Below are positions 2,449 to 53,226 of a stretch of DNA of 64,000 nt, one piece after another (positions within the stretch are counted from its first letter, which is position 1; every line of letters begins with the position of its first letter). Location of the stretch: NCBI GenBank assembly GCA_043807585.1, contig JAZDFV010000015.1, positions 16,071 through 80,070 on the forward strand, read 5' to 3'. The notes under the pieces are model-generated. The model saw only the letters and a program-made list of their open reading frames with translations, had not been told where the DNA came from and did not search any database. The stretch is from Candidatus Jorgensenbacteria bacterium. GTDB lineage: Bacteria; Patescibacteriota; Minisyncoccia; UBA6257; GWB1-50-10. The translations under genes were made by a program, and so were the position numbers.

Positions 2449-5346
2449 TCATGAGCATCCTCCCGATGACTCGCCGCACTGGAGGCAGGTGAGGCAGGTG
2501 CCGGTGCGCACCATCATCCCGCCGCACTTGCGGCACACCGTTTCTCCCGTCACCGTTCCGTTCCCGTTGAGCTTGGGTGCGACGGGTACCGGCACAGCAC
2601 TATCCTCAGGCGCGACGGAGGCAATCACCGTTTTCACCGGTTCCCCGATGCGGTGTTCCACGGGTTTTGCGCCTTCTTGGAGCACCGCCGTCATTCCGAA
2701 CTCGCTGAGGTCTTCCGCAGAGAGGAAACGGATGGCAAGGTAGCGGAAAATGTAGTCCAGGATACTTGTCGCGATCCTGATGTGGGGGTTCTCGGTGAAA
2801 CCCGCTGGCTCGAAGCGGCTGTAGACGAACTTGTGGGCGAGTTCTTTGAACGGCACGCCGTACTGGAGCGCCATGGAGACCGAGATGGCGAAGGCGTCGA
2901 GAAGGCCGGAGAGGGTGCTCCCCTGCTTCGCTATGCGGATGAAAATTTCGGAGAGCGTGCCGTCCGACTGGTAGATGCTGTAGGTGAGATACCCTTCGTG
3001 CCCCGCGATGGAGAACTTGTGGGTCTCGGAGAGGCGCGTCGCGGGGAGCCGCCGCCGGGAGGCCGTGGTGCCCGCGCGGATTCCATCCTCGCCGTCAGCC
3101 GATTTTTTCTCGGCATCGGAAGAAGTGGAGAGCGGCTGAGCGGCCTTGGAACCGTCGCGGTATACCGCAAACGCCTTGATGCCGAGCTTCCATGCCATAA
3201 GGTAAGCGTCGGCGATCTCCTCCTTGGTGGTCTCGCGCTGCATGTTGAAGGTTTTTGATATGGCGCCCGAGATGAACGGTTGTACCGCCGCCACCATCTT
3301 CACGTGTCCCTGCCAAGGGATTGACCTGGTGCCTTCGTGGGGTCGCATTGCGCAGTCAAAGACCGCGAGGTGCTCGGACTTGAGGTGGGGAGCGCCCTCA
3401 ACGGTGCCGTGCTCCGAGATCCATGCGATGATAGCGTCCTTCTCTTCGCCGCGGTATCCGAGGTTCTCTAGGGCCTCGGGGACGCTGCCGTTCACGATCT
3501 TCATCAGGCCGCCACCGACAAGTTGCTTCGTCTTCACAAGGGAAAAGTCGGGTTCGATGCCGGTGGTGTCGCAGTCCATCATGAACGAGATCGTGCCGGT
3601 GGGCGCGATGACGGTAACCTGTGAGTTGCGGAATCCGTTCGTCTCGCCGAGTGAGAGCGTTTCCTCCCACACCCCCTGTACGGCGCCGCCGAGCGCGGCG
3701 TCCTTGAGGAGTGCTACTGGAATCGCGCGCGCCACGAACCCATGGCTGCGGATGACATCGAGCATCGGTGCACGGTTCGCGGCGAATCCCTCGAAGGGTT
3801 TCATCCGTGCCGCCACAAGCGCCGAGTAGCGGTACGCTTCCCCCGAGAGCAGCGAGGCAATGGTAGCGCCCCACGCTCTCCCCTCCTCCGAGTCGTAGGG
3901 GATCCCTTTGGTCATGAGAAGCGCTCCTAGGTTCGCGAACCCGAGCCCCAATTGCCTGAATTTGTGCGCGTTTTCGGTTATGGGTGGGGTCGGATAGCTC
4001 GAATCGTCAATGATGATTTCCTGGGCCAGGAGGAACACGTCCACCGCCTGCCGGAACGCATCAACGTTGAAGGCGCCACTCGCCTCGCCTCGGCTCGTCG
4101 AGGCCGGGTCGTCCCGCATGAATTTGAGGAGGTTCAGGGAAGCGAGGTTGCAGGCGGAGTTGTCGAGGTGCATGTACTCCGAGCAGGGGTTCGAAGCGTT
4201 GATGCGGCCGGAGTTGGGGCAGGTGTGCCAGCGGTTCACGGTGGTGTCGAACTGGACGCCAGGGTCGCCGGATTCCCACGCCGCCTGGGCGATCTCCCCT
4301 AGGAGCTCCCGCGCCCGGCAGGTGGTTGCCGGTTCTCCGGTTGCGATGAAGCGCGTTTGCCACGGCCGGTCCTCCTCGACCGCCGCCATGAAACTGTCGG
4401 TGACGCGTACCGAGTTGTTGGCGTTCTGGAACTGAATGGAGTTCCACGCCTCGTTGTTGAGATCCTCCATGTGGTACCCTGCCGCGGCGAGCGCGCGCAC
4501 CTTCTTTTCCTCCTCCGCCTTGCAGCGGATGAACTCTAGGATGTCTGGGTGGTCGATGTTCAGGATCACCATCTTCGCCGCACGGCGCGTGGTGCCGCCC
4601 GATCTGATCATGCCGGCGACGGAATCGGCGCCGCGCATGAAAGACACCGGTCCCGAGGCGTGTCCGCCGCGCGAGAGCGGTTCGAGCTTCGAGCGAAGCG
4701 GCGAGAGGTTCACGCCTGACCCCGAGCCGCCCTTGAAGATGGTGCCTTCCGTTTTGATCCAGTCCAGGATGGAAGGCATGGTGTCTTCCACCGCGAGGAT
4801 GAAGCACGCCGAGCACTGCGGGTGTTCGCGCACGCCGACGTTGAACCACACCGGGCTGTTGAACGAACCCTTCTGGTGGAGAAGGAGGTGGATAAGCTCG
4901 TCCTCGAAGATTCCCGCCTGCGTGGGGCCGGTGAAGTAGCCGGATTCCTCACCCCACTTGCGGATCGTCTTCGCGACGCGTGAGATCATTTGCTTCAGGC
5001 TCCACTCGCGTTCGGGGGAACCCAGTTTGCCGCGGAAGTACTTCGCGGCGGTGATGTTTATCGCATTGGGTGACCAAAAGTCGGGGAACTCAACGTCCTT
5101 CTGCTCGAACGCCTTGCGCTCGCCGCTCCCCACGGCCGCATCGCGCTTCACCCACGTGACCTCGTCGAATGGGTGGACCTTCCCATCGGTGAAGAGGCGC
5201 TTCAGGGGAAGCGCCGGCCTGTTGTCCGGCCCGCTTCGCCGGAGCTTCGGCGAGGCGAGTGGGATGGCGCGCTTCGCAGCGGCGCGCGACAGAGAACGGC
5301 GGCTCTGCGAAGTGCGGGAAATTTTTTTGGCAGTCATGCCCGACAA
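2449..5346 (-). CDS. nrdJ: class II adenosylcobalamin-dependent ribonucleoside-diphosphate/triphosphate reductase
   Basis: 965 aa; N-terminal FTDGKVHPFDEVTW block, central RNR barrel blocks, C-terminal CRKCGG...CLTCLQCGESSGGCS zinc ribbon typical of NrdJ; true start may be internal. Confidence 0.9.
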   Translation of the reverse strand: MSGMTAKKISRTSQSRRSLSRAAAKRAIPLASPKLRRSGPDNRPALPLKRLFTDGKVHPFDEVTWVKRDAAVGSGERKAFEQKDVEFPDFWSPNAINITAAKYFRGKLGSPEREWSLKQMISRVAKTIRKWGEESGYFTGPTQAGIFEDELIHLLLHQKGSFNSPVWFNVGVREHPQCSACFILAVEDTMPSILDWIKTEGTIFKGGSGSGVNLSPLRSKLEPLSRGGHASGPVSFMRGADSVAGMIRSGGTTRRAAKMVILNIDHPDILEFIRCKAEEEKKVRALAAAGYHMEDLNNEAWNSIQFQNANNSVRVTDSFMAAVEEDRPWQTRFIATGEPATTCRARELLGEIAQAAWESGDPGVQFDTTVNRWHTCPNSGRINASNPCSEYMHLDNSACNLASLNLLKFMRDDPASTSRGEASGAFNVDAFRQAVDVFLLAQEIIIDDSSYPTPPITENAHKFRQLGLGFANLGALLMTKGIPYDSEEGRAWGATIASLLSGEAYRYSALVAARMKPFEGFAANRAPMLDVIRSHGFVARAIPVALLKDAALGGAVQGVWEETLSLGETNGFRNSQVTVIAPTGTISFMMDCDTTGIEPDFSLVKTKQLVGGGLMKIVNGSVPEALENLGYRGEEKDAIIAWISEHGTVEGAPHLKSEHLAVFDCAMRPHEGTRSIPWQGHVKMVAAVQPFISGAISKTFNMQRETTKEEIADAYLMAWKLGIKAFAVYRDGSKAAQPLSTSSDAEKKSADGEDGIRAGTTASRRRLPATRLSETHKFSIAGHEGYLTYSIYQSDGTLSEIFIRIAKQGSTLSGLLDAFAISVSMALQYGVPFKELAHKFVYSRFEPAGFTENPHIRIATSILDYIFRYLAIRFLSAEDLSEFGMTAVLQEGAKPVEHRIGEPVKTVIASVAPEDSAVPVPVAPKLNGNGTVTGETVCRKCGGMMVRTGTCLTCLQCGESSGGCS

Positions 5347-5526: not shown

Positions 5527-6105
5527 TTAGGGAGCTGGGGGTGCCTGCCCGTTCCCGAAGATGAGCACCGCGGATGCTACCGTGGTGGTCCAGAGCCCAT
5601 CCTTGTGACCCTCCGCGGACTGGGTGATGTTGGTAGTGCGGATGATCTTACCGGAGGCCTTGTACACCTGTTCGCGCTCGTCCCAGGCGGCGTTGGGGTC
5701 GAACTCAAGGCCGAGGGTGGTCGCGAGCATCGTGGCGGCAAGGTCTTCTGCATACTCCCCTGCCTTCCCTTCCGTTTCGCCGAATGTGTGGTGCTCGGAA
5801 AGATATCCATACTGCGATGGGTCTGCGGGTTGGGCAAGGCCGATTGCGGAAACCACGAGGCGGTTCGGTTCGTTCGTCTCATTCCGCGCCATGACGCAGA
5901 AGACCACCTGGCCGGGCACCAGAAACTTCTTCCCCTCTTCCTTGGAGATGCGCTTGCAGTTCGGGGGAAAGATGGAACTCACCTGCACGAGGTTGTACTC
6001 GGCGATGCCCGCGTCGCGGAGCGCCATCTCAAAGGATTGGAGCTGTTCCTTGTGGCGCCCCACACCCTTCGTGAAAAACATCTTTGCCGGCACTAAATTG
6101 GTCAT
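5527..6105 (-). CDS. pdaD: pyruvoyl-dependent arginine decarboxylase
   Basis: [44 protein letters not shown] matches the PdaD N-terminus including the SS self-processing site. Confidence 0.85.
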
Positions 6106-6129
6106 GCGAGATATAGTAGCAGATGTGTG

Positions 6130-7326
6130 TTATCCGTAAAGTCGCGCGAGCTCGTTGAACTTTACGAGACGCTCGCGGATAGGGGCGCCGATTTTCACGC
6201 CGTCGGCGCCGCAGGCGCGCGCGAGGTGGATGATGAACGTGTCATCGGTCTCGCCGGAGCGATGGGAAATAACAACCTGAATCCCGCGCGTGCGCGCCGC
6301 GCGGATGGCTTCGCATGTCTCGCTCACGGTTCCAATCTGGTTCGGTTTGATGATGACGCCGCTTATGGCTCCCTGTGCGGCGCACGATTCGATGAGCGCC
6401 GGATTCGTCACGGTGAGGTCGTCCCCCACGATGAGCTTTCCGGGGAGTTCCCGCCGCAGCGCCGCGAATGTCTCTCCCTCGTTCTCGTCGAACGGGTCTT
6501 CAATGGACATGAGGAGTGGCTCGCGCGCCGCATAGCTTTGGTAGATCGTTTTGAGTTCATCACTGGTGAGGTTTTTGCCCTCGAACTTATAGAAGCCACC
6601 CTTGAAGAAAACGGAGGCCGCGGAGTCAATGCCAAGCGCAAACTCTTTCTCGAGGTGGAGGGAGCGTATGCGCGCCCCGAGCGTGGCGAGGGGCTCGAAG
6701 TTGTCTTTGAAGTTCAGGGAGTAGCCACCCTCATCACCCAGGCGGATGGCGGTGAGATTCTGTGACTGCTGCAGCCATCCACCGAGGTCATGGTAGAAGG
6801 CCTTGAGCTGTTCCACGCTCTCTTTTACCGATACACTTGGTTTCACTGCGACAAGGTACTCCTGAATGTCGAGGTTGTTTTCCGCATGGGCGCCGCCGTT
6901 TATGAGATTTGAGAAAATGCGCGGCGGCGCGTCGCCTGCGGTGCTCGCGAAAAACTCGCCTCGGAGCATGAGCCAGAGCTCGCGTCCCTCGGCGCCCGCG
7001 AGCGCCCGCGCGAAGGCGATGGAGACGCCGAGGAGGACGTTACCGCCGAACGCTGCCTTATCCGGCGTGCCGTCCAGGTCAATGAGGAACCGGTCCAGGT
7101 CGCCCACCGAGGTGAAATCCCTGTCCCGTAGCGCCTGCTCGATCTTTTCCGCAGCCGCTATCGCCTCCGCGGTCGCCAGCACCCGCGCCTCGCGCGAGCC
7201 GCGGCTCCCACCGGAGGGAATGGATGCGGAGAATTCCTTTCCGTTGTCGGTGACGATGATCACCTCGATCGTAGGCGCCCCACGCGAGTCAGGAATTTCT
7301 TTTATGGCGATGCTTTGGATTCTCAT
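6130..7326 (-). CDS. eno: enolase (phosphopyruvate hydratase)
   Basis: IKEIPDSRGAPTIEV, SIPSGGSRGSREA, C-terminal IKPNQIGTVSET...VISHRSGETDD signature blocks. Confidence 0.9.
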   Translation of the reverse strand: MRIQSIAIKEIPDSRGAPTIEVIIVTDNGKEFSASIPSGGSRGSREARVLATAEAIAAAEKIEQALRDRDFTSVGDLDRFLIDLDGTPDKAAFGGNVLLGVSIAFARALAGAEGRELWLMLRGEFFASTAGDAPPRIFSNLINGGAHAENNLDIQEYLVAVKPSVSVKESVEQLKAFYHDLGGWLQQSQNLTAIRLGDEGGYSLNFKDNFEPLATLGARIRSLHLEKEFALGIDSAASVFFKGGFYKFEGKNLTSDELKTIYQSYAAREPLLMSIEDPFDENEGETFAALRRELPGKLIVGDDLTVTNPALIESCAAQGAISGVIIKPNQIGTVSETCEAIRAARTRGIQVVISHRSGETDDTFIIHLARACGADGVKIGAPIRERLVKFNELARLYG

Positions 7327-7619: not shown

Positions 7620-9395
7620 TCACACCACCTCTGCATTGTAGCAGGATTCGCAATAGATTATCTCTTTGCGGTCCGGCGCGTAGGAGGTCTCGAACTCATT
7701 AGGACATTTCTCTCCCCCGTGGGTGTGGTGGACGGTGTTCTTATAGATACCGTTCTCACTCCCCTTCCCCGCACACTGACACTTTCTTTTCCATAGCTTC
7801 AAGGGGTTCCGCTGCTTCAAACGCTCATAGTGACGACAGTTGGGGCAGAGGCGGGGTATGGGCAGATTCATTCTCCGATAGAAGGCGAGTTCCTCCCCTA
7901 TGACCTTGAAGGCGGTGGTGCACTGGTGGGTGCATTTCCCCTCGTGAGCGCAGCCTATCGTTTCATTCAATACCTCGTCGGTGACATCTTTGATGTAGTC
8001 GGGAAGATCCTCGGGTCTCTTGGTGATAGTGTATTGTTTAAGGTCGGGGTTTTTCCACCTGTAGCCCTTCGACTTCGCTTCCGCTTCGCTCAGGGGGAAG
8101 TACTCCTGGGCGATTGTCTCGTTGTACGCGAAGGGAGACAATTCTGGAGGGAAGAACTCGCCGTACCGGTAGACCCTCCCCTGCTTATCTACGTAGGGCA
8201 TGGTGTTCATGTGCTCAATGATGCGAGGTACCAGCTCCTCATACTCTTCCTTGGTGTATTGCTTGTTCAAGATGCAGTACTGCTTGTTTTTCATCCCAAC
8301 ACACCCAAAAAGGTTATGAGAACTTGAGCACCAGTCAGTGTACTGGGACCCGCGGAGAACATCAGCGCTGGCAAAAAATTTTACATTCGAAGTTCCTTTG
8401 CCCCCGACAATCCCATCATACACGAGCTCACTTCCCTCACCACAACTGAAAACCCTGTGTACGTCTTTTGCCTTAAGGACGCGGACAACCCAAGAGGCGT
8501 TTTCCACATCATAGGCATCGAAAGAATTCCTCACGTTCTTGCAATTCAAAATGTAGTTCCCGGTGCAATTGACCGCTTTCGAAATGTCGGCGTATTTATG
8601 AATACTGCACGCCTCAAGATCCTTGAAGTCATTCAGAAGTTTGGCTCTCCCCCGAGCGCTCCCAAGATTGATCCCCGAAATCGATTTCTCATACGCGCCC
8701 TTCGAGAGCTGTTCGTTGCAAAAAACATACTGTTTGTTCCGAAGGTTTGCCGACATAAAACAATTCTGGCAATTCACACAGTCATATAGGTAGTACGAAT
8801 CCGTACAGTCACGGCTGTTCACGATGAACTGGCTCTTATAACAATGGTCGGAATTGAACCCCTCGTATAACAACTCGGAGTTCTTGGACATCAAGGAATC
8901 GAGGACATCCTTAGACCAATCAACGATATTCGAATAGTAAATGCTCTCTCCTGTAGAAATCCCATACGCAAGGTAGGCGTTCTTCGTGTTCCGCGTGTAG
9001 TTCGCGAATTCGCAGTTAACACTCGTTCCATACTGCAGTATCGCGACGCGGGGGGTTGTCTTCAAAACGGACAGGAACTGAGTAAAGAATGGTTTTGCGA
9101 AATCATACGGAACCCCATATTTTGTTGGGTCCCATTTGTCAGATATGAAACAGCTATGGCAATACACAGGGAACTGGGCCCCCACCGGGTACATGGAAAT
9201 TGTCTTCGTTTTACAAAGCTCACACTGCCCCCAATACAACGCTTTCTCATTCCGCCAGAGCATTTTCGCTGCAAAACCGCACTCCGGGCACCACGTGGGC
9301 AGCGGGACTTTTATCTTCTCGTAGAACGCGAAGTCATCCGGCTCTATCGTGAAATTCTGCTGGCAACTCTGGCAATTTCTTGATTCGTGGTGCAT
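7620..9395 (-). CDS. cysteine-rich hypothetical protein with N- and C-terminal CxxC zinc-ribbon-like modules and internal Cys/Asn-rich repeats; atypically low GC
   Basis: 591-aa ORF; FYEKIKVPLPTWCPECG at N-term and FYRRMNLPIPRLCPNCRH at C-term; local GC about 47% versus about 60% flanks. Confidence 0.5.
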   Translation of the reverse strand: MHHESRNCQSCQQNFTIEPDDFAFYEKIKVPLPTWCPECGFAAKMLWRNEKALYWGQCELCKTKTISMYPVGAQFPVYCHSCFISDKWDPTKYGVPYDFAKPFFTQFLSVLKTTPRVAILQYGTSVNCEFANYTRNTKNAYLAYGISTGESIYYSNIVDWSKDVLDSLMSKNSELLYEGFNSDHCYKSQFIVNSRDCTDSYYLYDCVNCQNCFMSANLRNKQYVFCNEQLSKGAYEKSISGINLGSARGRAKLLNDFKDLEACSIHKYADISKAVNCTGNYILNCKNVRNSFDAYDVENASWVVRVLKAKDVHRVFSCGEGSELVYDGIVGGKGTSNVKFFASADVLRGSQYTDWCSSSHNLFGCVGMKNKQYCILNKQYTKEEYEELVPRIIEHMNTMPYVDKQGRVYRYGEFFPPELSPFAYNETIAQEYFPLSEAEAKSKGYRWKNPDLKQYTITKRPEDLPDYIKDVTDEVLNETIGCAHEGKCTHQCTTAFKVIGEELAFYRRMNLPIPRLCPNCRHYERLKQRNPLKLWKRKCQCAGKGSENGIYKNTVHHTHGGEKCPNEFETSYAPDRKEIIYCESCYNAEVV

Positions 9396-9417: not shown

Positions 9418-9442
9418 GGTACTACACGATCGTGTAGTACCT
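9418..9442. repeat. perfect palindrome gggtactacacgatcgtgtagtacc (GGTRCTA-N10-TAGYACC family), upstream of the Cys-rich gene
   Basis: Read directly. Confidence 0.55.
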
Positions 9443-9457
9443 CACCCCAGAGGCCTG

Positions 9458-10465
9458 CTACTGAGCCGTGAGATTTATCAGTTTCCCCGCGATGAATCCT
9501 TTTATATTTTCTACTGTGGTATTGAAGATGCGCTCCAGCGCCTCCTGGGTATTGAACGCGTTGTGCGGCGTGATGAGGACATTCGGCATTTTCATCAGCA
9601 TGTGGTTTTCCAGCATCGTGCGCAGTTCCTCCGCGTGTGCGTTAACGTTCCGGAAGAACTGCATCTCGTCCTTCGTCGGGCCTTCTTCTTCCAGCACGTC
9701 CACGCCAAGACCAGCCAGTGTTCCGTCCGCGAGCGCCGCAATCAAGGCATCGGTTTCCACGATGCCACCGCGCGCGGTGTTCACGAGGTACGCACCTTTC
9801 TTTATAAGCTTCATGTTATCGCGGTTCAAGAGGTGATGTGTTTCTTTGGTATAGGGCGTGTGGATAGAAATAATGTCGGAGGTCTTCAGAAGTTCTTCCA
9901 AGGGCAGGTACTGATAATTCATTTCTTTTGCATATGCCTCGTTGGGAAACGGGTCGTAAGCGACGACGTTCATTCCGAAACCTTTTGCGATCTTCACCAT
10001 TTCTTTCCCGATGCGGCCTGTGCCGATGATGCCGATGGTTTTCCATTTGAGGTCCATCCCGCGGAGGTCGTGGAGCGAGAACGATTCGAGTTCCTTCACC
10101 TGATCGATAGCGCGGTACATCTTGCGCGTGAGGTTCAGGATGAGGCCGAAGGCGAACTCCGCCACGGTATTGTCGCCATAGCCGGGCACGTAGGCCACCG
10201 CGATGCCGCGTTTTGTGCACTCCGCGAGGTCAATGTGGTCAAAACCGGTTGAGCGGGTCGTGATGAACTTGAGTTTCGGGAATTGGGCGAGGACCGCTGG
10301 CGTGAAGCGCGAGTTCACGAAGACGGAGATAACTTCCGCGCCGTTCATTTCGGGAAGCGTCAATTCGTCTATCTTGTTTTCATTGAACGATAATTCCGCA
10401 TCGGGAAACGCCGCCCGCGCGAGCGGTTCCTCCCACCCTTCCACCTCAAAAAAGGCAATGCGCAT
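9458..10465 (-). CDS. ldhA: D-isomer-specific 2-hydroxyacid dehydrogenase (D-lactate dehydrogenase-like)
   Basis: GIIGTGRIGKEMVKIAKGFGMNV NAD-binding motif and catalytic RGG/E/H arrangement of the D-2-HADH family; likely true start is MRIAFF (ATG at 10465) with TATAAT 7 nt upstream (leaderless). Confidence 0.8.
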   Translation of the reverse strand: MRIAFFEVEGWEEPLARAAFPDAELSFNENKIDELTLPEMNGAEVISVFVNSRFTPAVLAQFPKLKFITTRSTGFDHIDLAECTKRGIAVAYVPGYGDNTVAEFAFGLILNLTRKMYRAIDQVKELESFSLHDLRGMDLKWKTIGIIGTGRIGKEMVKIAKGFGMNVVAYDPFPNEAYAKEMNYQYLPLEELLKTSDIISIHTPYTKETHHLLNRDNMKLIKKGAYLVNTARGGIVETDALIAALADGTLAGLGVDVLEEEGPTKDEMQFFRNVNAHAEELRTMLENHMLMKMPNVLITPHNAFNTQEALERIFNTTVENIKGFIAGKLINLTAQ

Positions 10466-10496
10466 GTATCTATTATAGTACGTGTCGCCGCGAAAC

Positions 10497-10522
10497 AAAA
10501 ACCCCGCGCGGGGCGGGGCTTG
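10497..10522 (-). terminator. rho-independent terminator (ccccgcgcgggg stem then T-run on the minus strand) after the DUF559 gene
   Basis: aaaaaccccgcgcggggcggggctt read on the minus strand gives a GC hairpin followed by tttttgttt. Confidence 0.5.
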
Positions 10523-10558: not shown

Positions 10559-11317
10559 TTATTCGTGCGAATTAGCCGAGGGGAAGATAACGGCCCCGCC
10601 GCGGGAGCGAATCGCGCGCCGCACCGTCGCCATACAACTTTCAAAATCTGCTGTGAGTGCCTTCTCCGTAAGGCGCACCACTACCCATCCACGCTGCTGC
10701 AAGAAAAGATCTTTGGCACGGTCGCGCCTGCGTGTGTGCGCCCCGGCGTGCGCTTTCGTGTTATCGCATTCTACCGCAATGAATCCTCGCCGGCACGATA
10801 TCGCAAAATCAAGGCAGTACCGTTTCCCGCCGGAAATCCGGTATTGCGGAATCGCGGGGATGCCACACCGCGTGAGCGCCTGCGCCACTATCTCTTCTGT
10901 TGGCACCACTCGGTAGAGTTCGAGAATCGTTCTCGCAGTCAACAAACGGTCGAGCGTTGTAAAACCGAACGAAACACGCCTCGGCGGCACGTTCCTGATT
11001 GGCCGCGGGAGTTGTTGGATGCGGCCCACGTGAATTTGTTGATATTGCTTACCCGCGTCAGGATGGGTGGCCTCATCCGGAAGCAGGTCGCGCCGCGTCC
11101 GTACGCGCGAACGAACTGTGCGCGCATAGTAACGGATGCATCGCCCCAGTCGGCCGAAGAGCGCTGGTTGGTAGAACGCGAGATAGTGAAACGCGCGCCG
11201 CGGCGCCTTGGCGACCGGCATACGGTACCAATGCTCACGGAGGAGAATGGCCAAATCGCGCCTGCGCTTCAATATACCGACAAGCACCACCCCATCCTTC
11301 GTGTGTGCGCGCTCCAT
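10559..11317 (-). CDS. DUF559 (endonuclease-like, restriction-endonuclease fold) domain protein
   Basis: C-terminal YCLDFAI...IAVECDNTKAH...DRAKDLFLQQRGWVVVRL resembles the DUF559/Vsr-like fold. Confidence 0.55.
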   Translation of the reverse strand: MERAHTKDGVVLVGILKRRRDLAILLREHWYRMPVAKAPRRAFHYLAFYQPALFGRLGRCIRYYARTVRSRVRTRRDLLPDEATHPDAGKQYQQIHVGRIQQLPRPIRNVPPRRVSFGFTTLDRLLTARTILELYRVVPTEEIVAQALTRCGIPAIPQYRISGGKRYCLDFAISCRRGFIAVECDNTKAHAGAHTRRRDRAKDLFLQQRGWVVVRLTEKALTADFESCMATVRRAIRSRGGAVIFPSANSHE

Positions 11318-11327: not shown

Positions 11328-12020
11328 TTAGATGTTTAAAATCTGACTTTCAAGATGTTGTAACTTCGCTAGCCCCAACATGAGTTCACCTTTTTCCTCG
11401 GAGTTCAAGAGTGAAAGATATTCCAAAGAGCTCTTCAAAATCTTGAGACATTCTTTGAGTACATAGCTGGTGTATGCGTAGTCCACATCGCCATAAGCAT
11501 CACCGCGCTCCATCTCCCAACGGTTCGTGAGCTGCCGATAGGTCTTGGAGGTTAAGGTATTCCTATACCACGCCACATCGGCCGCCGCTTCCGTTTCCAA
11601 CCACAGGCTCCCTGATGTATCTGCGGCCTCCAGCACCGATTCCACGTTCTCACGCCATTGTGAAACTTTTCTATACAGCGGAAATTGTTCCGGCTCGGGC
11701 GGCACTGGGATATTGTCAATATTGGTAATATCAATCCCCATACGCTCAGCATCTTGCCTCACTATTGCTAAGGCTTCCCCGAAAGAGGCGCCAACATCTT
11801 CAAATACGCTCTTCATGTCATCGGGGTCTTCCCCGCAATCGATATGCGCGCTCCGATCGCGCATGATGTGTCCGCAGAGCGGGCAATCTTTTTGGTTACA
11901 CGGGATGCGACGCCAGGAACATTCCATCCACTTCGGCATCTCGAACTTACCATCCTTGCCTGATTTTATCTCCCCAATGATTGGCATACTGCTGTGTTTT
12001 TTAGTGGTAATAACCTTCAC
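11328..12020 (-). CDS. hypothetical protein with CxxC...CPLCGH zinc-finger-like motif
   Basis: 230-aa ORF, no recognised family. Confidence 0.4.
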   Translation of the reverse strand: MKVITTKKHSSMPIIGEIKSGKDGKFEMPKWMECSWRRIPCNQKDCPLCGHIMRDRSAHIDCGEDPDDMKSVFEDVGASFGEALAIVRQDAERMGIDITNIDNIPVPPEPEQFPLYRKVSQWRENVESVLEAADTSGSLWLETEAAADVAWYRNTLTSKTYRQLTNRWEMERGDAYGDVDYAYTSYVLKECLKILKSSLEYLSLLNSEEKGELMLGLAKLQHLESQILNI

Positions 12021-12076: not shown

Positions 12077-12355
12077 TTAAAGAATGGTAATGATGGCTCG
12101 GGCGGCAGGGCGTGCGGTATTCGCGAGCCGATAGAACACCTGCAAATCCCGCTGGTCGCGATCCACAAGGTCAGCCGCGTGGAGCACCGCGAGGTGCCGC
12201 GAGGTCGATTTGAAAGAGAGACGTATGGCACCCGCAATCTTCCCTACCGATGCCTCGCGCTCCTCCTTGAGATACTTCATGATGGCAAGCCGCCGCCGGT
12301 TGGCGAGTGCCTTGAGGGTCCGCTCGAGATCGCGCATAGGTGTTTGGGTTACCAT
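12077..12355 (-). CDS. ArsR/SmtB-family transcriptional regulator
   Basis: 92 aa; winged HTH VGKIAGAIRLSFKSTSRHLAVLHAADLV. Confidence 0.7.
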   Translation of the reverse strand: MVTQTPMRDLERTLKALANRRRLAIMKYLKEEREASVGKIAGAIRLSFKSTSRHLAVLHAADLVDRDQRDLQVFYRLANTARPAARAIITIL

Positions 12356-12851: not shown

Positions 12852-14429
12852 TCATGCTTCTCGGAGCTTCCGGTCGAGCTTTAGTTTTGCGATGCGCGAA
12901 CGGATGGCGCTCTGTTGACGCCCCAATCGCCCCGCGAGGTTCTTCACGGGCGCGCCGCTCGAAAAAAGTTCTCTCAGTTCTGCATCATCGCTCGTCGGCC
13001 ATGGGCGGTACGCGTTCGGATACCGCTCCCGCATCTCGGCGAACCTGGTATCGCCCGACACTCCGCCGCCGCGTGACCGGGCGAATTCTGCTCGGTGTTC
13101 CGCTCGCCTCTTCATGGTTCCTCCGCACGTAACGATGAATTTCCTTTCCCGTGCGTTTTGGGAAACGGGGGTCTGTAGGGTAAGTTCTGCCGCGGCGCGG
13201 TGAGATAGTTGCTGGAACTCTCCATCACGCGCGAGAATCTCGGGATGCACTTCAAGCGCACGTTCGTTCCACCCGAGAAGGGAAAGCCCGGAAAAAGACC
13301 TCACGCGGGAGAGCGCGACATACCCCTGCCCGTACTCGAACGCGCGAGAGAGATCGACCACCGCGGCGTCGAGCGTCATCCCCTGGCTCTTATGGACGGT
13401 AATGGCCCACGCGAGCTTCAGCGGCACCTGCCGGATGCGCGCGAGCGTTTTCGCGCCGTCCACCATGGACCACTCCATGGGGAGTGCATGAATGAGACGC
13501 CCGGCGTGCGTGCGCACGAGCGGGTAGCCCTCATCGGAAAAATCTTCCACCTCTCCCAGCGTGCCGTTCACAAACCCCTCCTCAAAGTTGTTCTTAGTGA
13601 AGAGCACCTTCGCGCCCAGTTTGAGGAAAAGTCGCTCCGGTGAGAGACAGCCGCGCTTCAATTGCGCTACGAGCGTTTTTGCACCGTGCGATTCCATGGA
13701 GCATTCGCGGACGCTCCCCGGCAATAACGCCAAACGCTCTTCGTTCATTTTATCTACATCAACATTATGTGCGTAGAGATGTGTGTGATTTCCTTCTCGG
13801 ACGGTGTGGACACGCCGCGCGCGAAGCACGGCGGACATTCGCGTTCCACTCCCGCGGCGCACCTCCGAAAGGAGCGCGAGAAACTCCTTTTCATCCTGAC
13901 GGTACTGCTCGGAAAGATAGCACACCGCCACCTCGGCTGTTTCCCAGGACGGCGAGAGAAACGCGAATCGCGCCGGCGGTTCACCTTCCCGTGCAACCGG
14001 GGGTAATTGGAAGAAATCCCCAGCGAGCACCACCTGCAGACCGCCGAACGGCGCTTTATTTTTCCGGAGCACGCGGCACACCACATCAACAGAGGCAAAT
14101 GTTTCGGCATCCAGCATTGAAATCTCATCAATGATGAGCACTTTCGTACGCGCCACCCGCGACGTAAGTCGGTCGTTCCCCGCGAGCAGTTCCGCCTCAT
14201 CTCGGGAGAGCGATTTCCGGATACCGATGCCGGACCACGCATGGATGGTCATACCGCCTATATGCGTCGCCGCGATGCCGGTGGACGCGGTGATCGCCGG
14301 TTCGATACCGTGCGCGCGGAGATAGGCGACGTAGCGGTTCACGGTGTGTGTTTTTCCCGAGCCGGGCTCACCCGTCAAAAACACGTTCACGCCGGACTTC
14401 AACACCATGAGCGCTTGCTCCTGGGTCAT
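12852..14429 (-). CDS. PIF1/RecD-like (AAA_30) ATP-dependent DNA helicase
   Basis: Walker A LTGEPGSGKTH, Walker B VLIIDEISM, helicase motifs plus C-terminal HTH-like tail. Confidence 0.75.
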   Translation of the reverse strand: MTQEQALMVLKSGVNVFLTGEPGSGKTHTVNRYVAYLRAHGIEPAITASTGIAATHIGGMTIHAWSGIGIRKSLSRDEAELLAGNDRLTSRVARTKVLIIDEISMLDAETFASVDVVCRVLRKNKAPFGGLQVVLAGDFFQLPPVAREGEPPARFAFLSPSWETAEVAVCYLSEQYRQDEKEFLALLSEVRRGSGTRMSAVLRARRVHTVREGNHTHLYAHNVDVDKMNEERLALLPGSVRECSMESHGAKTLVAQLKRGCLSPERLFLKLGAKVLFTKNNFEEGFVNGTLGEVEDFSDEGYPLVRTHAGRLIHALPMEWSMVDGAKTLARIRQVPLKLAWAITVHKSQGMTLDAAVVDLSRAFEYGQGYVALSRVRSFSGLSLLGWNERALEVHPEILARDGEFQQLSHRAAAELTLQTPVSQNARERKFIVTCGGTMKRRAEHRAEFARSRGGGVSGDTRFAEMRERYPNAYRPWPTSDDAELRELFSSGAPVKNLAGRLGRQQSAIRSRIAKLKLDRKLREA

Positions 14430-16399: not shown

Positions 16400-17155
16400 T
16401 CAGTTAGTTTTTTTGTACCAAACATCAATTTTTTGACGTGTTTCTCTTCGATTTGCATTAACAAAAGTCTGTAATTGTGGAAAATATCCTAAAAATTCGT
16501 CGTGTAATTTCTTGCGGCTAGCTGATGTCTCTCTACCACTTTTAATTAAATAACTAGTCCGAACTAACCCAATAATAAGATCGACGAGTTGCAGTTCACA
16601 TGATGCATATAAAGGCGCAAAGAGTACTGAAGAATCTCGAATCTGGATTGTGGGCTTCCCCAAAATAGTATTCTTTTTTCTCAGCATATTATTCAGTACC
16701 TTCGAGAATTCTTCCTGTTGCTCAAAATTAAGCGATTGTCTATCAAAGATAAGTCGAGCAGCAGAAAGACGATTGTGTATTAAGCTTCCATGAAGTATCC
16801 ATGGATAAGACAATAGCAGTGCCGCTAACTTCGCGCGGCTGATGTGATTTTCCCATCTTTCCCACGTGCGAGCGTTCACCACAATTGCTCTAAACAGGGC
16901 ATTCGAATCAACAAAAGCAGAAAGAAACCCACTCATAACTTTAGATTGTTTTTCGGTAATATTTGTAGTGTTGGAAAAATGAAGAGTATTGATACAACTT
17001 TCTTTCATTCTCACTTGCCCAAGTCGCTGGAACAAATCGCAATCTACAGGTAGAAAAATACCACCAACCATAAAATGGCTGGTGCCTAGATACCCGAACT
17101 CAGTTTCGTCCAAAAAAATCCTGCAAAGATGAAATACTGATTCTGAAATTTTCAT
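16400..17155 (-). CDS. DUF3800-like protein (defence-island-associated family), AT-rich
   Basis: N-terminal IFLDETEFGY resembles the DUF3800 IFIDESG start; 251 aa; low GC. Confidence 0.4.
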   Translation of the reverse strand: MKISESVFHLCRIFLDETEFGYLGTSHFMVGGIFLPVDCDLFQRLGQVRMKESCINTLHFSNTTNITEKQSKVMSGFLSAFVDSNALFRAIVVNARTWERWENHISRAKLAALLLSYPWILHGSLIHNRLSAARLIFDRQSLNFEQQEEFSKVLNNMLRKKNTILGKPTIQIRDSSVLFAPLYASCELQLVDLIIGLVRTSYLIKSGRETSASRKKLHDEFLGYFPQLQTFVNANRRETRQKIDVWYKKTN

Positions 17156-19362: not shown

Positions 19363-19719
19363 TCATTTATTAAAAGCCCATTCAGAAATATTGAGCAGAA
19401 CAATAGCATCCTCCTGTTGATTGGTCCAAATAGGTACTGTTTTATTCCAGTAGAAGAAGTGTGAAGTATTGCCACTCCCATTTACTTGTGTTTTATAAGA
19501 CCCTTTCTTTGTATAAAGAACAATTAAATCACCCTTTTTAATTTCGTGGTCAGTAAACCAAAAAGTAGCACTGGTAGCACTAGAAACTTGCGCCTCCCCT
19601 GTTTTTTTAGATTTGAAAACGGCGTATTCTCCAACGTTATCATCATCCAAAACCTCAAAAATAACCCTTTCTTTCTCTAAATTCCCCGCGTCTTCAATTC
19701 CTTTAATTTGGATTTTCAT
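19363..19719 (-). CDS. hypothetical soluble protein, AT-rich, first gene of a two-gene module
   Basis: 118 aa; stop/start overlap with the upstream gene. Confidence 0.45.
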   Translation of the reverse strand: MKIQIKGIEDAGNLEKERVIFEVLDDDNVGEYAVFKSKKTGEAQVSSATSATFWFTDHEIKKGDLIVLYTKKGSYKTQVNGSGNTSHFFYWNKTVPIWTNQQEDAIVLLNISEWAFNK

Positions 19720-22921: not shown

Positions 22922-23021
22922 ACTAGGCTACCTCCGTATTGTAACACGTCTCACAATACGATTTCTTTTTGTTCTGTACCATAGTTCAAAAACTAATCTC
23001 TTTGGTTACGATGCCGCAGTA

Positions 23022-23047
23022 CGGTGCCGTGACGCGTCACAGCACCG
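23022..23047. repeat. near-perfect palindrome cggtgccgtgacgcgtcacagcaccg upstream of ppsA (shares the tgacgcgtca core with the eno site)
   Basis: Read directly. Confidence 0.5.
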
Positions 23048-23124
23048 CATCTAGACCACTTTTGCATCGTAATTCGACACTGTCTGTTTTCTCGATTCAT
23101 ATTTTCTAGATTTAATTTCGGCTA

Positions 23125-23157: not shown

Positions 23158-23252
23158 ACACCTTCATTCTTAGACGACTTCGCTGCTGTAGCACTGCTCA
23201 CAGTAGACGATTTCGGGCCGGTTGGGGGCATAACTCGTCTCAAATTCATTGG

Positions 23253-24581
23253 TTAATCTTTCAGCGCAACAATCAAATCCGAAACGTTGGAGCCGGTGTC
23301 GCCCGTGATGAGGGCGTCGCCCGTCGCTTTGAAAAACTCGTAGGAGTCGTTCTCGGCGAGGAACTGTGCGGCGTCAAGTTTCAACTTCTCCGAGTGCTCC
23401 TTCGTCATTATATCAGAGACGGCGCCGGCGAAGTCGGTGTTGTCCCGTCCGTCGGAAGCGAGGGCGAGAACGAGCTCCCCTTCTTTGAGCTCCCTCAAGG
23501 CACCGAGGGCGAGCTCAAGGTTCCGGCCGCCTCTCCCCTGCGGGTTCTGCACCGTGACAGTGGTCTCTCCGCCGTAGAGGTGGACGGTGCCGGGTGCCGC
23601 CTCATGGAGCACATCCGCGATTTCTCTGCCCACATCCCGCGCCTCGCCGCGAAGGTTCGCGGTCATGATGCGGGGCGTGAAACCGGATTTTTCCGCCTCC
23701 GCCGCCATCGCCCCGAGCGCGGCTTGGTTGGAAACGACAAGGAGGTTCGTCACTTTTTCAAAATACTTATCCTCTTTTGGCGTCTCAATGAGTTCCAGTC
23801 GCGGGAGGTTACACTTCTCGCGGATGGCGTACTTCTCGAGCACCGCTTCGGCGTCCGCCACCGTCGTTTTGTCCCTCACAGTGGGGCCCGACGCGATGAA
23901 AGCAAGTTCGCCGCCCGGGACGTCGGAGAAAATGAGCGAAATTACCTGTGCGGGGCAGGCATAGCGCGCGAGCCAGCCGCCGCGGGCAAGCGAGGTGTGC
24001 TTGCGGAGTGTGTTTATCTCGTAGATGTCGGCGCCGCCCGCAAAGAGGCAGCGGAGGATTTTGGCTTCATCTTCGCAGGTGTGGTCCTGCGGCTGACCCG
24101 CCTCCGCTGAAGCTATGGCGGGTAAACATAATAAAGTAGAGCCGCCCCCCGAGACGACAAAGAGCACCGTATCTTTCTCCGAGAGGCCGGTGAGCGTTTG
24201 AATAATCTCCTTCGTGGCGTCCACGTTGGACTGTGTGGGGAAGGGGTGGGTACCAAAGCGAATTTCTAATTTCAAATTCCTAATTTCTAATGACGGCTTG
24301 TTTGACGTTAGAATTATTCCACCAGACAATCTTTCGCCGAGAATTTTTTCCAGTACCCTACCCGATTCCAGCGCGCACTTCCCAACCCCAATGACGAGGA
24401 GTTTGCCGTCCGGTGCAAGCTTGAATTTCTCCCCCTTTACGGAGAGTGTGTCACCCGCGAACTGTACTGCGTTCTTCACGACCGATTCGGTGTCTATCGC
24501 CTGAAGTCCGGCCTCCGCGATCTGGAGCGCCGCTTCCCGCGGTCTGCTCTTCGCAAGTTGCCCGAAGTTTTTGATTCTCAT
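23253..24581 (-). CDS. glycerate kinase (MOFRL/DUF4147 family, glycerate 2-kinase type)
   Basis: 442 aa; conserved blocks LVIGVGKCA, FSDVPGGELAFIASGPT, LYGGETTVTV typical of the GckA/TtuD family. Confidence 0.7.
   Translation of the reverse strand: MRIKNFGQLAKSRPREAALQIAEAGLQAIDTESVVKNAVQFAGDTLSVKGEKFKLAPDGKLLVIGVGKCALESGRVLEKILGERLSGGIILTSNKPSLEIRNLKLEIRFGTHPFPTQSNVDATKEIIQTLTGLSEKDTVLFVVSGGGSTLLCLPAIASAEAGQPQDHTCEDEAKILRCLFAGGADIYEINTLRKHTSLARGGWLARYACPAQVISLIFSDVPGGELAFIASGPTVRDKTTVADAEAVLEKYAIREKCNLPRLELIETPKEDKYFEKVTNLLVVSNQAALGAMAAEAEKSGFTPRIMTANLRGEARDVGREIADVLHEAAPGTVHLYGGETTVTVQNPQGRGGRNLELALGALRELKEGELVLALASDGRDNTDFAGAVSDIMTKEHSEKLKLDAAQFLAENDSYEFFKATGDALITGDTGSNVSDLIVALKD
24261..24293. 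repeat. taatttctaat tandem units inside the glycerate kinase CDS (encode EIRNLKLEIRF)
   Basis: aatttctaatttcaaattcctaatttctaatga; same unit dominates the murG-ftsW spacer. Confidence 0.5.
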
Positions 24582-38147: not shown

Positions 38148-38183
38148 AATTCAGATTCGAAAGAAAAATTTCCCCTTTATGGA

Positions 38184-53224: not shown

Positions 53225-53226
53225 AT

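Follow-up and report, generated by a model that had tools for sequence, protein, structure and literature searches.

Zinc binding by small proteins of the CxxC-x17-CxxC type was measured by ICP-MS in Methanosarcina mazei (PMC12704099). The related domain models PF13451 (zf_Tbcl), PF23477 (zf_Tbcl_2) and TIGR04272 span fingers of ~35 residues, known from small proteins and from fusions of other kinds. In 2,918 Patescibacteria genomes 5,713 VirD4-like T4CPs were found, just 148 of them near virB4, and exaptation for other functions was considered possible; the T4SS of these bacteria has no relaxases and has been regarded as repurposed (PMC12102498). Among regular solenoids, the left-handed beta-helix (LbH) proteins (GlmU, LpxA/LpxD, gamma-carbonic anhydrase) are built of 18-residue (3x6) coils. 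The antifreeze protein of Tenebrio molitor (TmAFP) is a small secreted eukaryotic 12-residue beta-helix with a TCTxSxxCxxAx motif, a Thr ladder and intra-coil disulfides.

The 591-aa protein described here is encoded in the 64-kb stretch of DNA that was analysed as a whole (the window). Two of its terminal modules, ZnA and ZnC, follow the CxxC...F.FY...P.P..CP.CR pattern of the finger models, ZnB is exactly CxxC-x17-CxxC and ZnD is C-x17-CxxC with a ...Y.P.R.E.VYC..CY strand, but the models account for roughly 30% of the protein and none of their known carriers has a double-solenoid core. With LbH proteins it shares a narrow, regular all-beta solenoid of short strands, and these are its best PDB matches in Foldseek; its coils are, however, of 12 residues, its family has neither the hexapeptide signature nor the catalytic residues, and there are two solenoids per chain, capped by NLRNKQY motifs. 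The 12-residue repeat, the evenly spaced Cys and the very narrow solenoid recall TmAFP, whereas the window protein is cytoplasmic and bacterial, has another repeat motif, no signal peptide and no sequence similarity to TmAFP; 1EZG was absent from the top 50 Foldseek matches. The operon-like linkage of the family to an ATPase is reminiscent of the effectors, relaxases and adaptors encoded beside T4CPs (VirD4/TraD/TrwB), but this ATPase has no N-terminal membrane domain, no relaxase is present, the T4CP homologues of Patescibacteria usually do not lie near virB4 (PMC12102498), and the window copy is unlinked to a T4CP-type ATPase within 64 kb.

Domain architecture of the 591-residue protein

The ORF product (68 kDa, pI 7.8) contains 5.4% Cys (32 Cys) and 6.6% Asn and has 100% identity with the hypothetical protein MFH1162353.1 from a Candidatus Jorgensenbacteria MAG. 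The first-pass annotation, made from the letters of the window, had described a Cys-rich ORF without signal peptide, with matching zinc-ribbon-like ends and internal Cys/Asn repeats, which it could not place in a known family. The ORF is real, it contains both terminal motifs and both internal strings that had been quoted, and its Cys content agrees with the description. A zinc ribbon forms the N-terminus, and neither a signal peptide nor a TM segment was found in the protein (maximal 19-aa hydropathy 0.91), which is soluble and cytoplasmic. The family assignment stayed empty as well: for the window protein Pfam returned 0 families at E<=1 and NCBIfam no match, PDB sequences were matched neither by the single sequence (phmmer) nor by a 144-sequence profile, neither Pfam nor NCBIfam revealed a known DNA- or RNA-binding domain, and Foldseek gave no meaningful match. 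PHROGs matched weakly, in two families of unknown function, phrog_9336 (Zn module) and phrog_15341 (solenoid 1 of one distant relative). An anti-phage defence reading was dropped, 0 PADLOC-DB families having matched the query and four diverse relatives at E<=0.1. Literature searches on PF13451 and on beta-helix, zinc or cysteine-rich families of CPR bacteria turned up no account of this family. The gene and its modules are:

7620..9395, minus strand: complete family gene, 591 aa (ORF list; family profile positions 1-589, E=1e-266)
9240..9395, minus strand: ZnA, residues 1-52, treble-clef/zinc-ribbon (C8-x2-C11-x24-C36-x2-C39)
9096..9239, minus strand: ZnB, residues 53-100, exact CxxC-x17-CxxC ribbon (C58, C61, C79, C82)
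9042..9095, minus strand: linker helix, residues 101-118 (AF2 helix 103-113, pLDDT >90)
8706..9041, minus strand: beta-solenoid 1, residues 119-230, ~nine 12-residue coils (periodicity; all-beta in the second AF2 model)
8604..8705, minus strand: helical hairpin between the solenoids, residues 231-264 (AF2 helices 232-240 and 247-263)
8253..8603, minus strand: beta-solenoid 2, residues 265-381 (homologous duplicate of solenoid 1)
7962..8252, minus strand: long helix and small acidic alpha/beta region, residues 382-478 (conservation; pLDDT >90)
7788..7961, minus strand: ZnC, residues 479-536, second zf_Tbcl-like module (conservation, hhalign)
7620..7787, minus strand: ZnD, residues 537-591 and stop (C539-x-C541, H557, H559, C564-x17-C582-x2-C585)

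The match between the two ends was borne out by hhalign, in which residues 1-100 align with 478-591 at 99.6% (E=1.8e-24; controls <3%), ZnA being homologous to ZnC (99.3%, E=1.4e-20) and ZnB to ZnD (92.6%, E=4.7e-7). Their zinc-ribbon-like character finds support in the relatives, of which 40/73 weakly match PF13451 (best E=6.3e-4; the window protein is below the gathering threshold) and 23/73 weakly match PF23477 (best E=1.2e-5; no significant match for the window protein); a precomputed PF23477 match is recorded for two database relatives. ZnA and ZnC both display the zf_Tbcl pattern of two CxxC knuckles, an aromatic/Pro segment and a C..CR end (C8xxC11...FAFYEKIKVPLPTWC36PEC39G and C492...FYRRMNLPIPRLC517PNC520R; Cys columns 92-100% conserved). 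In ZnA (motif F.FYEKI.VP.PT.CPxCR) the Cys columns are 99-100% conserved, and ZnC (C482, C488, C492 ... C517-x2-C520; motif F.FYRRMNLP.PRLCPNCRH) is the most basic segment of the protein, with a family mean charge of +5.6, ZnA having +2. The exact 17-residue spacing of PF23477/TIGR04272 is found in ZnB (C58-x2-C61-x17-C79-x2-C82), a ribbon that about 70-89% of family members possess; ZnD is a ribbon of the same type with extra His/Cys ligands, in which C539-x-C541 stands in place of the first CxxC pair and which ends in the invariant tail YCExCYxxEVV.

The internal Cys/Asn repeats are also real, although their anatomy had been described imprecisely: the unit is of 12 residues, roughly [N/D][S/C]x[Y/F][L/S]xxxxx[S/C/N][E/K/Q], and is arranged in two homologous blocks of ~115 aa. 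Blocks 119-230 and 265-381 align with each other at 99.9% (hhalign, E=1.6e-35), and their lag-12 periodicity reaches z=8.3 and z=3.3, respectively (0/2000 shuffles reach the observed value; control regions z~0), the periods of 24 and 36 being harmonics of the dominant 12. In the query sequence alone, the periodicity is detectable in the first block only (z=4.4 vs -0.1). The Cys ladders of solenoid 1 run in 12-residue registers (140/164/176/212; 185/197/209; 194/206) into an end cap, C206-x2-C209-x2-C212...NLRNKQYVF.N.Q, and solenoid 2 ends in a highly conserved cap, NLFGC.G(L/M)(R/K)NKQYCILNKQY. Cys residues in the solenoids are 40-95% conserved, and the family alignments show neither conserved His or Asp nor a catalytic motif there. 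The linker helix bears the conserved PFFxQFxEL...VP (with F103, Q106, L110 and P115), the hairpin varies more than any other part of the protein (mean pairwise identity 0.24), and residues 382-478, with a mean charge of -6.3 in a protein that is near neutral as a whole, hold the highest conservation blocks, including the family signature MPY.D..GR.Y.YGEFFPPELSPFAYNETIAQEYFP. Pairwise identity is 0.24-0.34 in the solenoids and hairpin vs 0.42-0.54 in the Zn modules and across residues 382-478.

A first AF2 model, based on 73 sequences, had a pLDDT of ~60 in the centre and yielded noise in Foldseek; the model from a 144-sequence alignment reaches a pLDDT of 92.9 and a pTM of 0.92 with an all-beta centre. 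Such a model, which the first-pass annotation had suggested as a check, offers just a generic beta-helix resemblance: the Foldseek matches are insignificant (E>=1.3e-3, probability <=0.14), the fold does not superimpose on the hexapeptide-repeat LbH superfamily (TM <=0.19, RMSD 12-20 A), and Hexapep of Pfam matches neither the query nor any of the 73 relatives. The chain runs from a Zn pair through solenoid, hairpin, solenoid and acidic alpha/beta region to a second Zn pair and, judged from the alignments, zinc-finger pair and solenoid alike have been duplicated within the chain.

Family, surroundings and the linked ATPase

A word-indexed search with the ORF protein returned at least 7,979 matches; at 50% identity the family comprises 3,562 clusters with E<=1e-3 and 1,428 with E<=1e-30. 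The search for homologues that the first-pass annotation had suggested led to a large family, and to no characterised one. At least 582 species genomes carry it, all with Parcubacteria-type titles, and essentially all of the family appears to be restricted to Parcubacteria/Paceibacteria (CPR). In 38 of 83 family-seeded loci 2-6 tandem copies stand on the same strand, with a within-array identity (median 41.9%, maximum 66.6%) equal to that between genomes (42.7%), and the tandem paralogues are anciently diverged. As many as six consecutive 1.8-kb copies occur in CPR genomes, which are generally under about 1 Mb.

No conserved operon was found around the ORF in the window, and the genes next to it have unrelated housekeeping roles (class II RNR, pyruvoyl arginine decarboxylase, enolase, 2-hydroxyacid dehydrogenase). 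The stop of the 2-hydroxyacid dehydrogenase gene is separated from the ORF start by a 62-bp gap, and a 293-bp spacer (41% GC) lies downstream of the ORF. Further features of the window are:

9418..9441, no strand: perfect 24-bp palindrome GGTACTACACGATCGTGTAGTACC, in the 62-bp gap 5' of the ORF
23173..23256, minus strand: relic of a lost paralogue, 28 codons, LTNEFETSYAPNRPEIVYCEQCYSSEVV and stop (tblastn and family HMM)
22926..22985, minus strand: weaker relic of the family C-terminus, KKKSYCETCYNTEVA and stop (HMM positions 574-589, E=0.007)

The palindrome is unique in the window (0 expected), its RNA hairpin has a predicted energy of -27.9 kcal/mol (z=-3.1), and it may act as an operator or as an RNA hairpin. 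Between it and the ORF, at about -9, lies an AAGGA Shine-Dalgarno-like site; promoter and terminator scans at the ORF gave no informative signal. The longer relic begins directly after the stop of a DUF4147/MOFRL gene and matches the family by tblastn (68% identity, E=1.7e-8) and by HMM (positions 562-589, E=4e-12). By these matches, the window contains two decayed C-terminal family relics. A 35-aa ORF (22993-23100), the start of which, MNRENRQC, resembles the family N-terminus, precedes the weaker relic.

Elsewhere the family is associated with an ATPase: its gene was found at 14 of 83 family-seeded loci, mostly directly beside the family genes and in some cases between them. A reciprocal scan, the seeds of which were ATPases chosen for family adjacency and the loci of which are phylogenetically non-independent, found family ORFs in 59 of 80 ATPase-seeded metagenome loci (74%) and in 31 of the 39 loci of >=10 kb. 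The family is the top neighbour of the ATPase (51 loci, 89/92 genes on the same strand), followed by DnaJ (21 loci), and for 42 of 108 ATPase genes the immediate same-strand neighbour is a family gene (median gap 35 bp). DnaK (8/80 ATPase-seeded loci, in which DnaJ occurs in 21/80), GrpE (6/83 family-seeded loci) and a sigma-like/HARE-HTH protein are further neighbours, and the signal may partly be inherited synteny of a block with DnaJ, the sigma-like protein and small membrane proteins. Adjacency to the ATPase applies to only 17-19% of the copies in the family, a search for an ATPase-specific subfamily including the window copy found none, and the window has no VirD4/TraD-like ATPase gene. 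The ATPase matches TrwB_AAD_bind/DUF87/TraG-D_C and, weakly and far below all family cut-offs, TraD/VirD4/CedD models; no TM segment was found in it and the N-terminal membrane anchor is absent. One of these ATPases (locus L086) matches TIGR04272, the CxxC-x17-CxxC domain (E=9e-14), a zinc module common to the family and to some of the linked ATPases.

Proposed role and alternative readings

We propose, with about even confidence, that the ORF is a native stand-alone copy of an ancient Parcubacteria paralogous family, the members of which are zinc-stabilised scaffolds acting as client or adaptor of a VirD4/TraD-like ATPase; we infer every functional step for the family. The window copy would be a vertically maintained member of this Parcubacteria/Paceibacteria family. 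Four to five structural Zn(II) sites would clamp both ends of the protein, the two narrow, variable solenoids and the hairpin between them would form a ligand-recognition surface, and the basic zinc modules (ZnC ~+6) might touch nucleic acid or a partner protein; nucleic-acid binding is only putative because ZnA (+2) and ZnC (+5.6) are modestly basic and the whole protein is near neutral. The gene neighbourhood suggests that the family works with a soluble, TM-less VirD4/TraD/HerA-like P-loop ATPase, the family member being either its client (a translocated or remodelled substrate) or a substrate-recruiting adaptor, and the anciently diverged paralogues would supply differing specificities.

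A nucleic-acid-handling factor apart from secretion, e.g. a DNA/RNA binding or uptake accessory feeding an FtsK/HerA/CedD-like translocase, is rather unlikely. The basic treble-clef modules, above all ZnC (+5.6), the zf_Tbcl-type fingers that structure search finds in phage zinc-ribbon and HNH-type proteins, the weak resemblance of the ATPase to TraD and the DNA-translocating ATPase CedD, and the sigma-like/HARE-HTH neighbour are in line with such a role, but the overall charge is near neutral and the core acidic, known DNA- or RNA-binding domains are absent (Pfam, NCBIfam), and the ATPase model matches all lie far below the family cut-offs.

It is unlikely that the paralogues are T4SS effectors, recruited by the VirD4-like ATPase and delivered by the Patescibacteria T4SS to differing host targets, even though the tight linkage to T4CP-like ATPase genes, the absence of a signal peptide, which would be expected of T4SS substrates, and the expansion of a multi-copy family in obligate episymbionts would all suit this reading. 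Transit through a T4SS requires unfolding, which proteins with many zinc sites and solenoids resist, and a tightly folded multi-zinc protein is ill suited as a type IV secretion substrate. No N-terminal membrane anchor is present in the ATPase, and the paralogues are ancient and conserved (~42% identity, with invariant motifs), while typical effectors evolve fast. A repurposed T4SS without relaxases would accord with effector delivery, but the T4CP homologues are mostly not near virB4 (PMC12102498).

That the protein is a proteostasis or redox factor, a multi-zinc holdase or redox switch working with DnaK/DnaJ/GrpE and with the ATPase as remodelling motor, is quite improbable. The recurrence of these chaperone genes nearby, the 32 Cys with several CxxC pairs and Cys ladders, and the precedent of Hsp33, in which zinc-centre redox switches are established, speak for it; similarity to Hsp33 or to the DnaJ zinc finger is, however, absent (Pfam, Foldseek), the DnaJ linkage is far weaker than the family-ATPase linkage and may be plain synteny, and the presence of 2-6 ancient divergent paralogues would be left without explanation.

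A different origin of the gene was put forward by the first-pass annotation, which took a drop to ~47% GC between ~60% flanks as a sign of foreign descent. The ORF does lie below its flanks, but at 49.4% GC and between flanks of 60.4% (left) and 53.5% (right), in a window with a mean of 54.2%. A low-GC gene from another organism or a mobile element, inserted between the 2-hydroxyacid dehydrogenase and enolase genes, would agree with the contrast to the left flank, with the AT-rich downstream spacer (41% GC over 293 bp), with the direct adjacency of 2-Hacid_dh and enolase in the related genome L085, which marks the position here as inserted, and with the nearest relatives being only 66-77% identical, one of them labelled Woesearchaeota. 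Against this stand the codon data, in which the ORF is among the most typical genes of the window: GC3 is 0.645 (window mean 0.629 +/- 0.15), the codon-usage distance, 0.138, ranks 40th of 50 and makes the ORF more typical than 39/50 window genes, and the GC expected when the ORF's amino-acid sequence is encoded with the pooled synonymous codon usage of the window is 50.3% vs 49.5% observed (difference -0.008, rank 17/50), whereas atypical genes elsewhere in the window deviate by -0.11 to -0.16. The low GC stems from GC1 (0.454) and GC2 (0.383), i.e. from a K/N/Y/S/E/F-rich amino-acid composition. The family resides in the 582 or more Parcubacteria-type genomes, other Jorgensenbacteria included; phage and plasmid collections and defence-island searches gave no family matches, IMG/VR (2.9 million viral contigs) gave one partial match, and the surroundings of the ORF showed neither an integrase nor a tRNA nor a repeat boundary. 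Relocation of a native multi-copy gene within the genome explains the inserted position equally well; relics of other copies lie at 22926-23256. Foreign origin is therefore very improbable and inter-phylum transfer already largely refuted, intragenomic transposition is possible, and by all these measures the gene appears native to its Parcubacteria (CPR) bacterium. An LbH enzyme (acyltransferase- or gamma-carbonic-anhydrase-like, with the solenoid as catalytic platform) was rejected and is hardly probable at all: the top Foldseek PDB matches are all LbH (GlmU, LpxD, LpxA, gamma-CA) and gamma-CA is a zinc enzyme, but these matches are insignificant, Hexapep is absent, the repeat is of 12 residues, not 6 or 18, and the solenoids have no catalytic motif.

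Implications for Patescibacteria

Much of bacterial diversity belongs to the CPR/Patescibacteria, most of whose lineage-specific proteins are functionally unexplained. The family of the zinc-clamped scaffold proposed here is one of the bigger cases, with thousands of clusters and a core without Pfam model or structural relative, and its duplicated zinc-finger pairs on either side of a 12-residue Cys/Asn-ladder solenoid are a predicted new architecture. For genome scanning, it cautions that amino-acid composition alone can produce a GC dip. A role in DNA/RNA uptake would bear on nucleotide scavenging in CPR bacteria. The link of the family to the ATPase provides a testable handle on the role of the Patescibacteria T4CP homologues not near virB4. 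We suggest, tentatively and as the less likely outcome, that the family and the soluble ATPase form an unrecognised Paceibacteria-wide machine, in which a set of ancient paralogous, zinc-clamped double solenoids would serve the 'orphan' T4CP as its specific clients or as specificity subunits. If true, this machine would account for the ~two T4CP genes per Patescibacteria genome that are kept away from the T4SS, and the solenoids would represent a fold class of 12-residue Cys/Asn-ladder coils without a solved relative.

Architecture of the protein

The ORF (7620..9395, minus strand, ATG start) encodes 591 aa as first annotated, and every sequence string quoted in the first-pass annotation is found in its product, which contains 6.6% Asn and 5.4% Cys, K, E, S and Y also being abundant. 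The protein has no signal peptide, as had been claimed, since no part of it is hydrophobic (the highest Kyte-Doolittle value over 19 residues is 0.91) and its N-terminus opens directly with a zinc-ribbon motif. Conserved Cys/His clusters were read from the family alignments A1 and A2.

Zinc modules of the ORF product
ZnA, residues 1-52: cluster C8/C11/C36/C39, 99-100% conserved
ZnB, residues 53-100: cluster C58/C61/C79/C82, exact CxxC-x17-CxxC, 70-89% conserved
ZnC, residues 479-536: cluster C482/C488/C492/C517/C520
ZnD, residues 537-591: cluster C539/C541/H557/H559/C564/C582/C585

The reported match between the termini was borne out by profile-profile comparison, in which residues 1-100 are homologous to 478-591 (99.6%, E=1.8e-24), ZnA pairing with ZnC at 99.3% and ZnB with ZnD at 92.6%, while residues 115-240 are homologous to 262-400 (99.9%, E=1.6e-35); negative controls stayed below 3%. 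The internal repeats are equally real, the unit in the centre being 12 residues long, roughly [N/D][S/C]x[Y/F][L/S]xxxxx[S/C/N][E/K/Q]. Lag-12 column similarity reaches z=8.3 in solenoid 1 (119-230) and z=3.3 in solenoid 2 (265-381) against z~0 in control regions, and the observed value was equalled in 0 of 2,000 shuffles. Partly conserved Cys residues of the first block fall on 12-residue registers (140/164/176/212; 185/197/209; 194/206) and are ladders along the repeat, and a cap, 'NLRNKQY.(I/F).N.QYSKEEY', followed by a helix, closes both blocks. AlphaFold, the check proposed in the first-pass annotation, modelled the centre poorly from 73 sequences; an alignment of 144 sequences of greater diversity gave a pLDDT of 92.9, a pTM of 0.92 and an all-beta centre, in which DSSP assigns 'EEEE--E--E--' every 12 residues (188-216). 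Family conservation is lowest in the two solenoids and in the helical hairpin that joins them (identity 0.24-0.34) and highest in the zinc modules and the 382-478 region (0.42-0.54; signature GEFFPPELSPFAYNETIAQEYFP). The protein is soluble, carries duplicated zinc-finger pairs at its two ends and has a pair of homologous beta-solenoids built of the 12-residue repeat.

The query, which the first-pass annotation could not place in a known family, is without a match in Pfam, NCBIfam or PDB sequences, and the 144-sequence profile found nothing among PDB sequences even at E<=10. When 73 members were scanned one by one, the only matches, all weak and sub-threshold, were to a pair of short zinc-finger models: 40 members matched PF13451 zf_Tbcl and 23 matched PF23477 zf_Tbcl_2. 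The termini are probably distant zf_Tbcl / zf_Tbcl_2 (CxxC-x17-CxxC) members that work alike, sharing the spacing and motifs of these families but scoring below their HMM thresholds. The core of ~380 residues belongs to none of the described families; the 12-residue period is presumably the sole feature that it has in common with the insect antifreeze beta-helix. Elsewhere in the window, the class II (B12-dependent) ribonucleotide reductase (2449-5346, minus strand) has, besides its TSCPD domain, a Cys-rich tail at the C-terminus, CRKCGGMMVRTGTCLTCLQCGESSGGCS, a further putative zinc-ribbon-like appendage in this genome.

Base composition and distribution of the family

A GC content of about 47% between flanks of about 60% had been taken to indicate foreign origin. 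The ORF does lie below the window mean (54.2%), but at 49.4%, and only the left flank (5527-7326, 60.4%) is as described, the right one (9458-10498) having 53.5%. GC1/GC2/GC3 of the ORF are 0.454/0.383/0.645, the mean GC3 of the 53 long ORFs of the window being 0.629 +/- 0.15. When the amino-acid sequence of each gene was re-encoded using synonymous codon frequencies pooled over all other genes, the ORF showed 49.5% GC observed versus 50.3% expected (difference -0.008, rank 17 of 50), and 39 of 50 genes lie farther from the pool in synonymous codon usage than the ORF does (distance 0.138). GC3 and codon usage, the comparison that the annotation itself had proposed, are typical of the window and contradict its conclusion: the GC dip reflects a K/N/Y/S/F/E-rich protein, not a foreign codon dialect, and the ORF is native by composition. 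A tblastn search of 50,697 phage records and of 72,556 plasmids found no relatives, IMG/VR (2.9 million contigs) has a single partial match, and PADLOC defence models gave no match. Horizontal acquisition of the gene, for which the low GC had spoken, is very improbable.

Far stronger candidates for foreign or recently acquired DNA are the truly atypical low-GC genes at 16400-17155, 19719-20267, 36377-39794, 47463-47894 and 52538-55546. Their GC3 is mostly 0.26-0.38 (0.45-0.49 in two ORFs at 36377-37580), observed minus expected GC is -0.05 to -0.16 and codon-usage distance 0.26-0.43; for 16400-17155, 19719-20267, 38184-39794, 47463-47894 and 52538-55546 the ranges are -0.11 to -0.16 and 0.31-0.43.

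The product shows 100% identity to MFH1162353.1, a 'hypothetical protein' from a 101-kb contig of a Candidatus Jorgensenbacteria MAG (Patescibacteria group > Parcubacteria group). Relatives number at least 7,979 in a word-indexed search, and the top 120 have 49-77% identity and are nearly all full length, mostly ~580-610 aa; exhaustive phmmer against 1.84 billion cluster representatives gave 3,562 clusters at E<=1e-3, of which 1,428 reach E<=1e-30. At least 582 family stretches were confirmed in GTDB species genomes, and the 80 loci kept come almost throughout from Parcubacteria/Paceibacteria-type MAGs (Jorgensen-, Giovannoni-, Lipton-, Nomura-, Staskawicz-, Kaiser-, Niyogi- and Sungii-bacteria, Paceibacterota). 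The third-best relative (P0003, 68% identity), from a contig of 4.3 kb, bears the label Candidatus Woesearchaeota archaeon; a mistake in binning or a DPANN-CPR transfer might account for this. Among the matches listed, relatives are named only 'hypothetical', 'uncharacterized', 'Zinc-binding domain-containing' or 'CxxC-x17-CxxC domain-containing', and we found no description of the family in the literature. Its sequences are already public as hypothetical proteins, and zinc ribbons and beta-solenoids are known kinds of block; no earlier description appears to exist of the architecture, of the 12-residue Cys/Asn-ladder coil or of the linkage to the ATPase.

Tandem copies and genomic neighbours

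ORFs were clustered from 82 family-seeded loci and the window. The sole strongly recurrent neighbour is the family itself (156 members in 83 loci), with tandem same-strand copies, 2-6 per locus, in 38 of the 83. Median identity within arrays is 41.9% (maximum 66.6%) versus 42.7% between genomes, hence the arrays consist of anciently diverged paralogues and not of recent duplicates. Besides one intact copy, the window contains two decayed C-terminal relics.

Relics and associated features
22922-23256, minus strand: relic-bearing region; its spacer (22922-23252) separates the PEP-utilising enzyme gene (20330-22921) from the DUF4147/MOFRL gene (23253-24581)
23173-23256, minus strand: relic 1, 'LTNEFETSYAPNRPEIVYCEQCYSSEVV*', HMM E=4e-12, beginning right after the DUF4147/MOFRL stop codon
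22926-22985, minus strand: relic 2, 'KKKSYCETCYNTEVA*', HMM E=0.007
22993-23100, minus strand: 35-aa ORF beginning MNRENRQC, like the family N-terminus

The relics and the MNRENRQC ORF suggest that former tandem copies were deleted. The intact ORF lies between the genes of a 2-hydroxyacid dehydrogenase and enolase, which adjoin each other in a related genome (L085) with family copies elsewhere on the contig; the arrangement is compatible with relocation inside a native family that is dynamic.

The 62-bp gap that precedes the ORF on its 5' side contains a perfect 24-bp palindrome, GGTACTACACGATCGTGTAGTACC (9418-9441), unique in the window (hairpin -27.9 kcal/mol, z=-3.1, no T-tract), which could be an operator or an mRNA processing/stability element. 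Just upstream of the locus are a REase_MTES_1575/DUF559-type endonuclease-like gene (10559-11317, minus) and a PIF1-family helicase gene (12852-14429, minus), and between them a 230-aa ORF (11328-12020, 48.8% GC, no Pfam match) and ArsR-type HTH genes (12077-12355). Small ArsR/HTH_5 regulators occur near family genes in four loci, the window included, directly upstream in L001 (5703-5978) and L002 (42-347), a weak link.

The next commonest neighbour is a P-loop ATPase of ~490-660 aa (14 of 83 loci), which matches TrwB_AAD_bind, DUF87 and TraG-D_C and, weakly, TraD, VirD4-like and CedD models, and in which no TM segment was found. It lies on the strand of the family gene, usually abutting, and is interleaved more than once with family genes in four loci (L017, L037, L056, L086). 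Some ATPases carry a C-terminal CxxC-x17-CxxC domain themselves (L086 versus TIGR04272, E=9e-14; the L055 sequence includes 'CSICKKETTVPFKPEPGRSVYCKDC'). The ATPase, soluble and VirD4/TraD/HerA-like, is highly conserved, most copies having 66-84% identity across species (range 43-84%). In a reciprocal test, metagenome contigs were scanned with the ATPase alignment A3; family ORFs lay within +/-6 kb of the ATPase in 59 of 80 loci (31 of 39 among loci >=10 kb), these loci being phylogenetically non-independent and the seed ATPases chosen for family adjacency. The family is the top neighbour (51 loci; 89 of 92 genes on the ATPase strand), followed by DnaJ (21 loci), a small membrane protein (20) and a sigma-like protein (18), and a family gene is the immediate same-strand neighbour of 42 of 108 ATPase genes (median gap 35 bp). 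ATPase-adjacent copies make up about 19% of the family, no more; the window copy has no such ATPase beside it or anywhere in the 64 kb, and no ATPase-specific subfamily containing this copy was found. We have moderate confidence in a genomic coupling between the family and a soluble VirD4/TraD-like ATPase. A recurrent Paceibacteria block (L009, L017, L037, L055, L056, L086 and metagenome loci L087-L166) combines the ATPase with a sigma70-region-4/HARE-HTH protein, small membrane proteins, DnaJ/DnaK, CutA1 and the zinc-solenoid family.

Proposed role

We propose that four to five structural Zn sites would stiffen the protein ends, Zn binding by this CxxC-x17-CxxC module type having been measured in M. 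mazei small proteins (PMC12704099); that the variable solenoid and hairpin surfaces may recognise a ligand; and that the protein may be a client or specificity adaptor of the ATPase, different specificities being supplied by the paralogues. Confidence is high in the descriptive part, the architecture and an ancient, paralogous, Parcubacteria-specific family, and low in the exact role, client versus adaptor; for the package as a whole, belief and doubt are evenly balanced.

ZnC is basic (family average +5.6) and the 382-478 region acidic (-6.3). That the protein is a nucleic-acid-handling accessory factor seems unlikely. A survey counted 5,713 VirD4-like T4CP homologues in 2,918 Patescibacteria genomes and does not mention the zinc-solenoid family (PMC12102498). 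A T4SS effector family is a rather more doubtful reading. It is quite improbable that the protein is a proteostasis or redox factor acting with DnaK/J. The likeness of the core to LbH proteins is generic, no more, and an LbH-type enzyme is barely credible.

Though not a foreign gene, the ORF belongs to a family that represents a sizeable part of the CPR 'dark matter' and offers a concrete handle for experiments.
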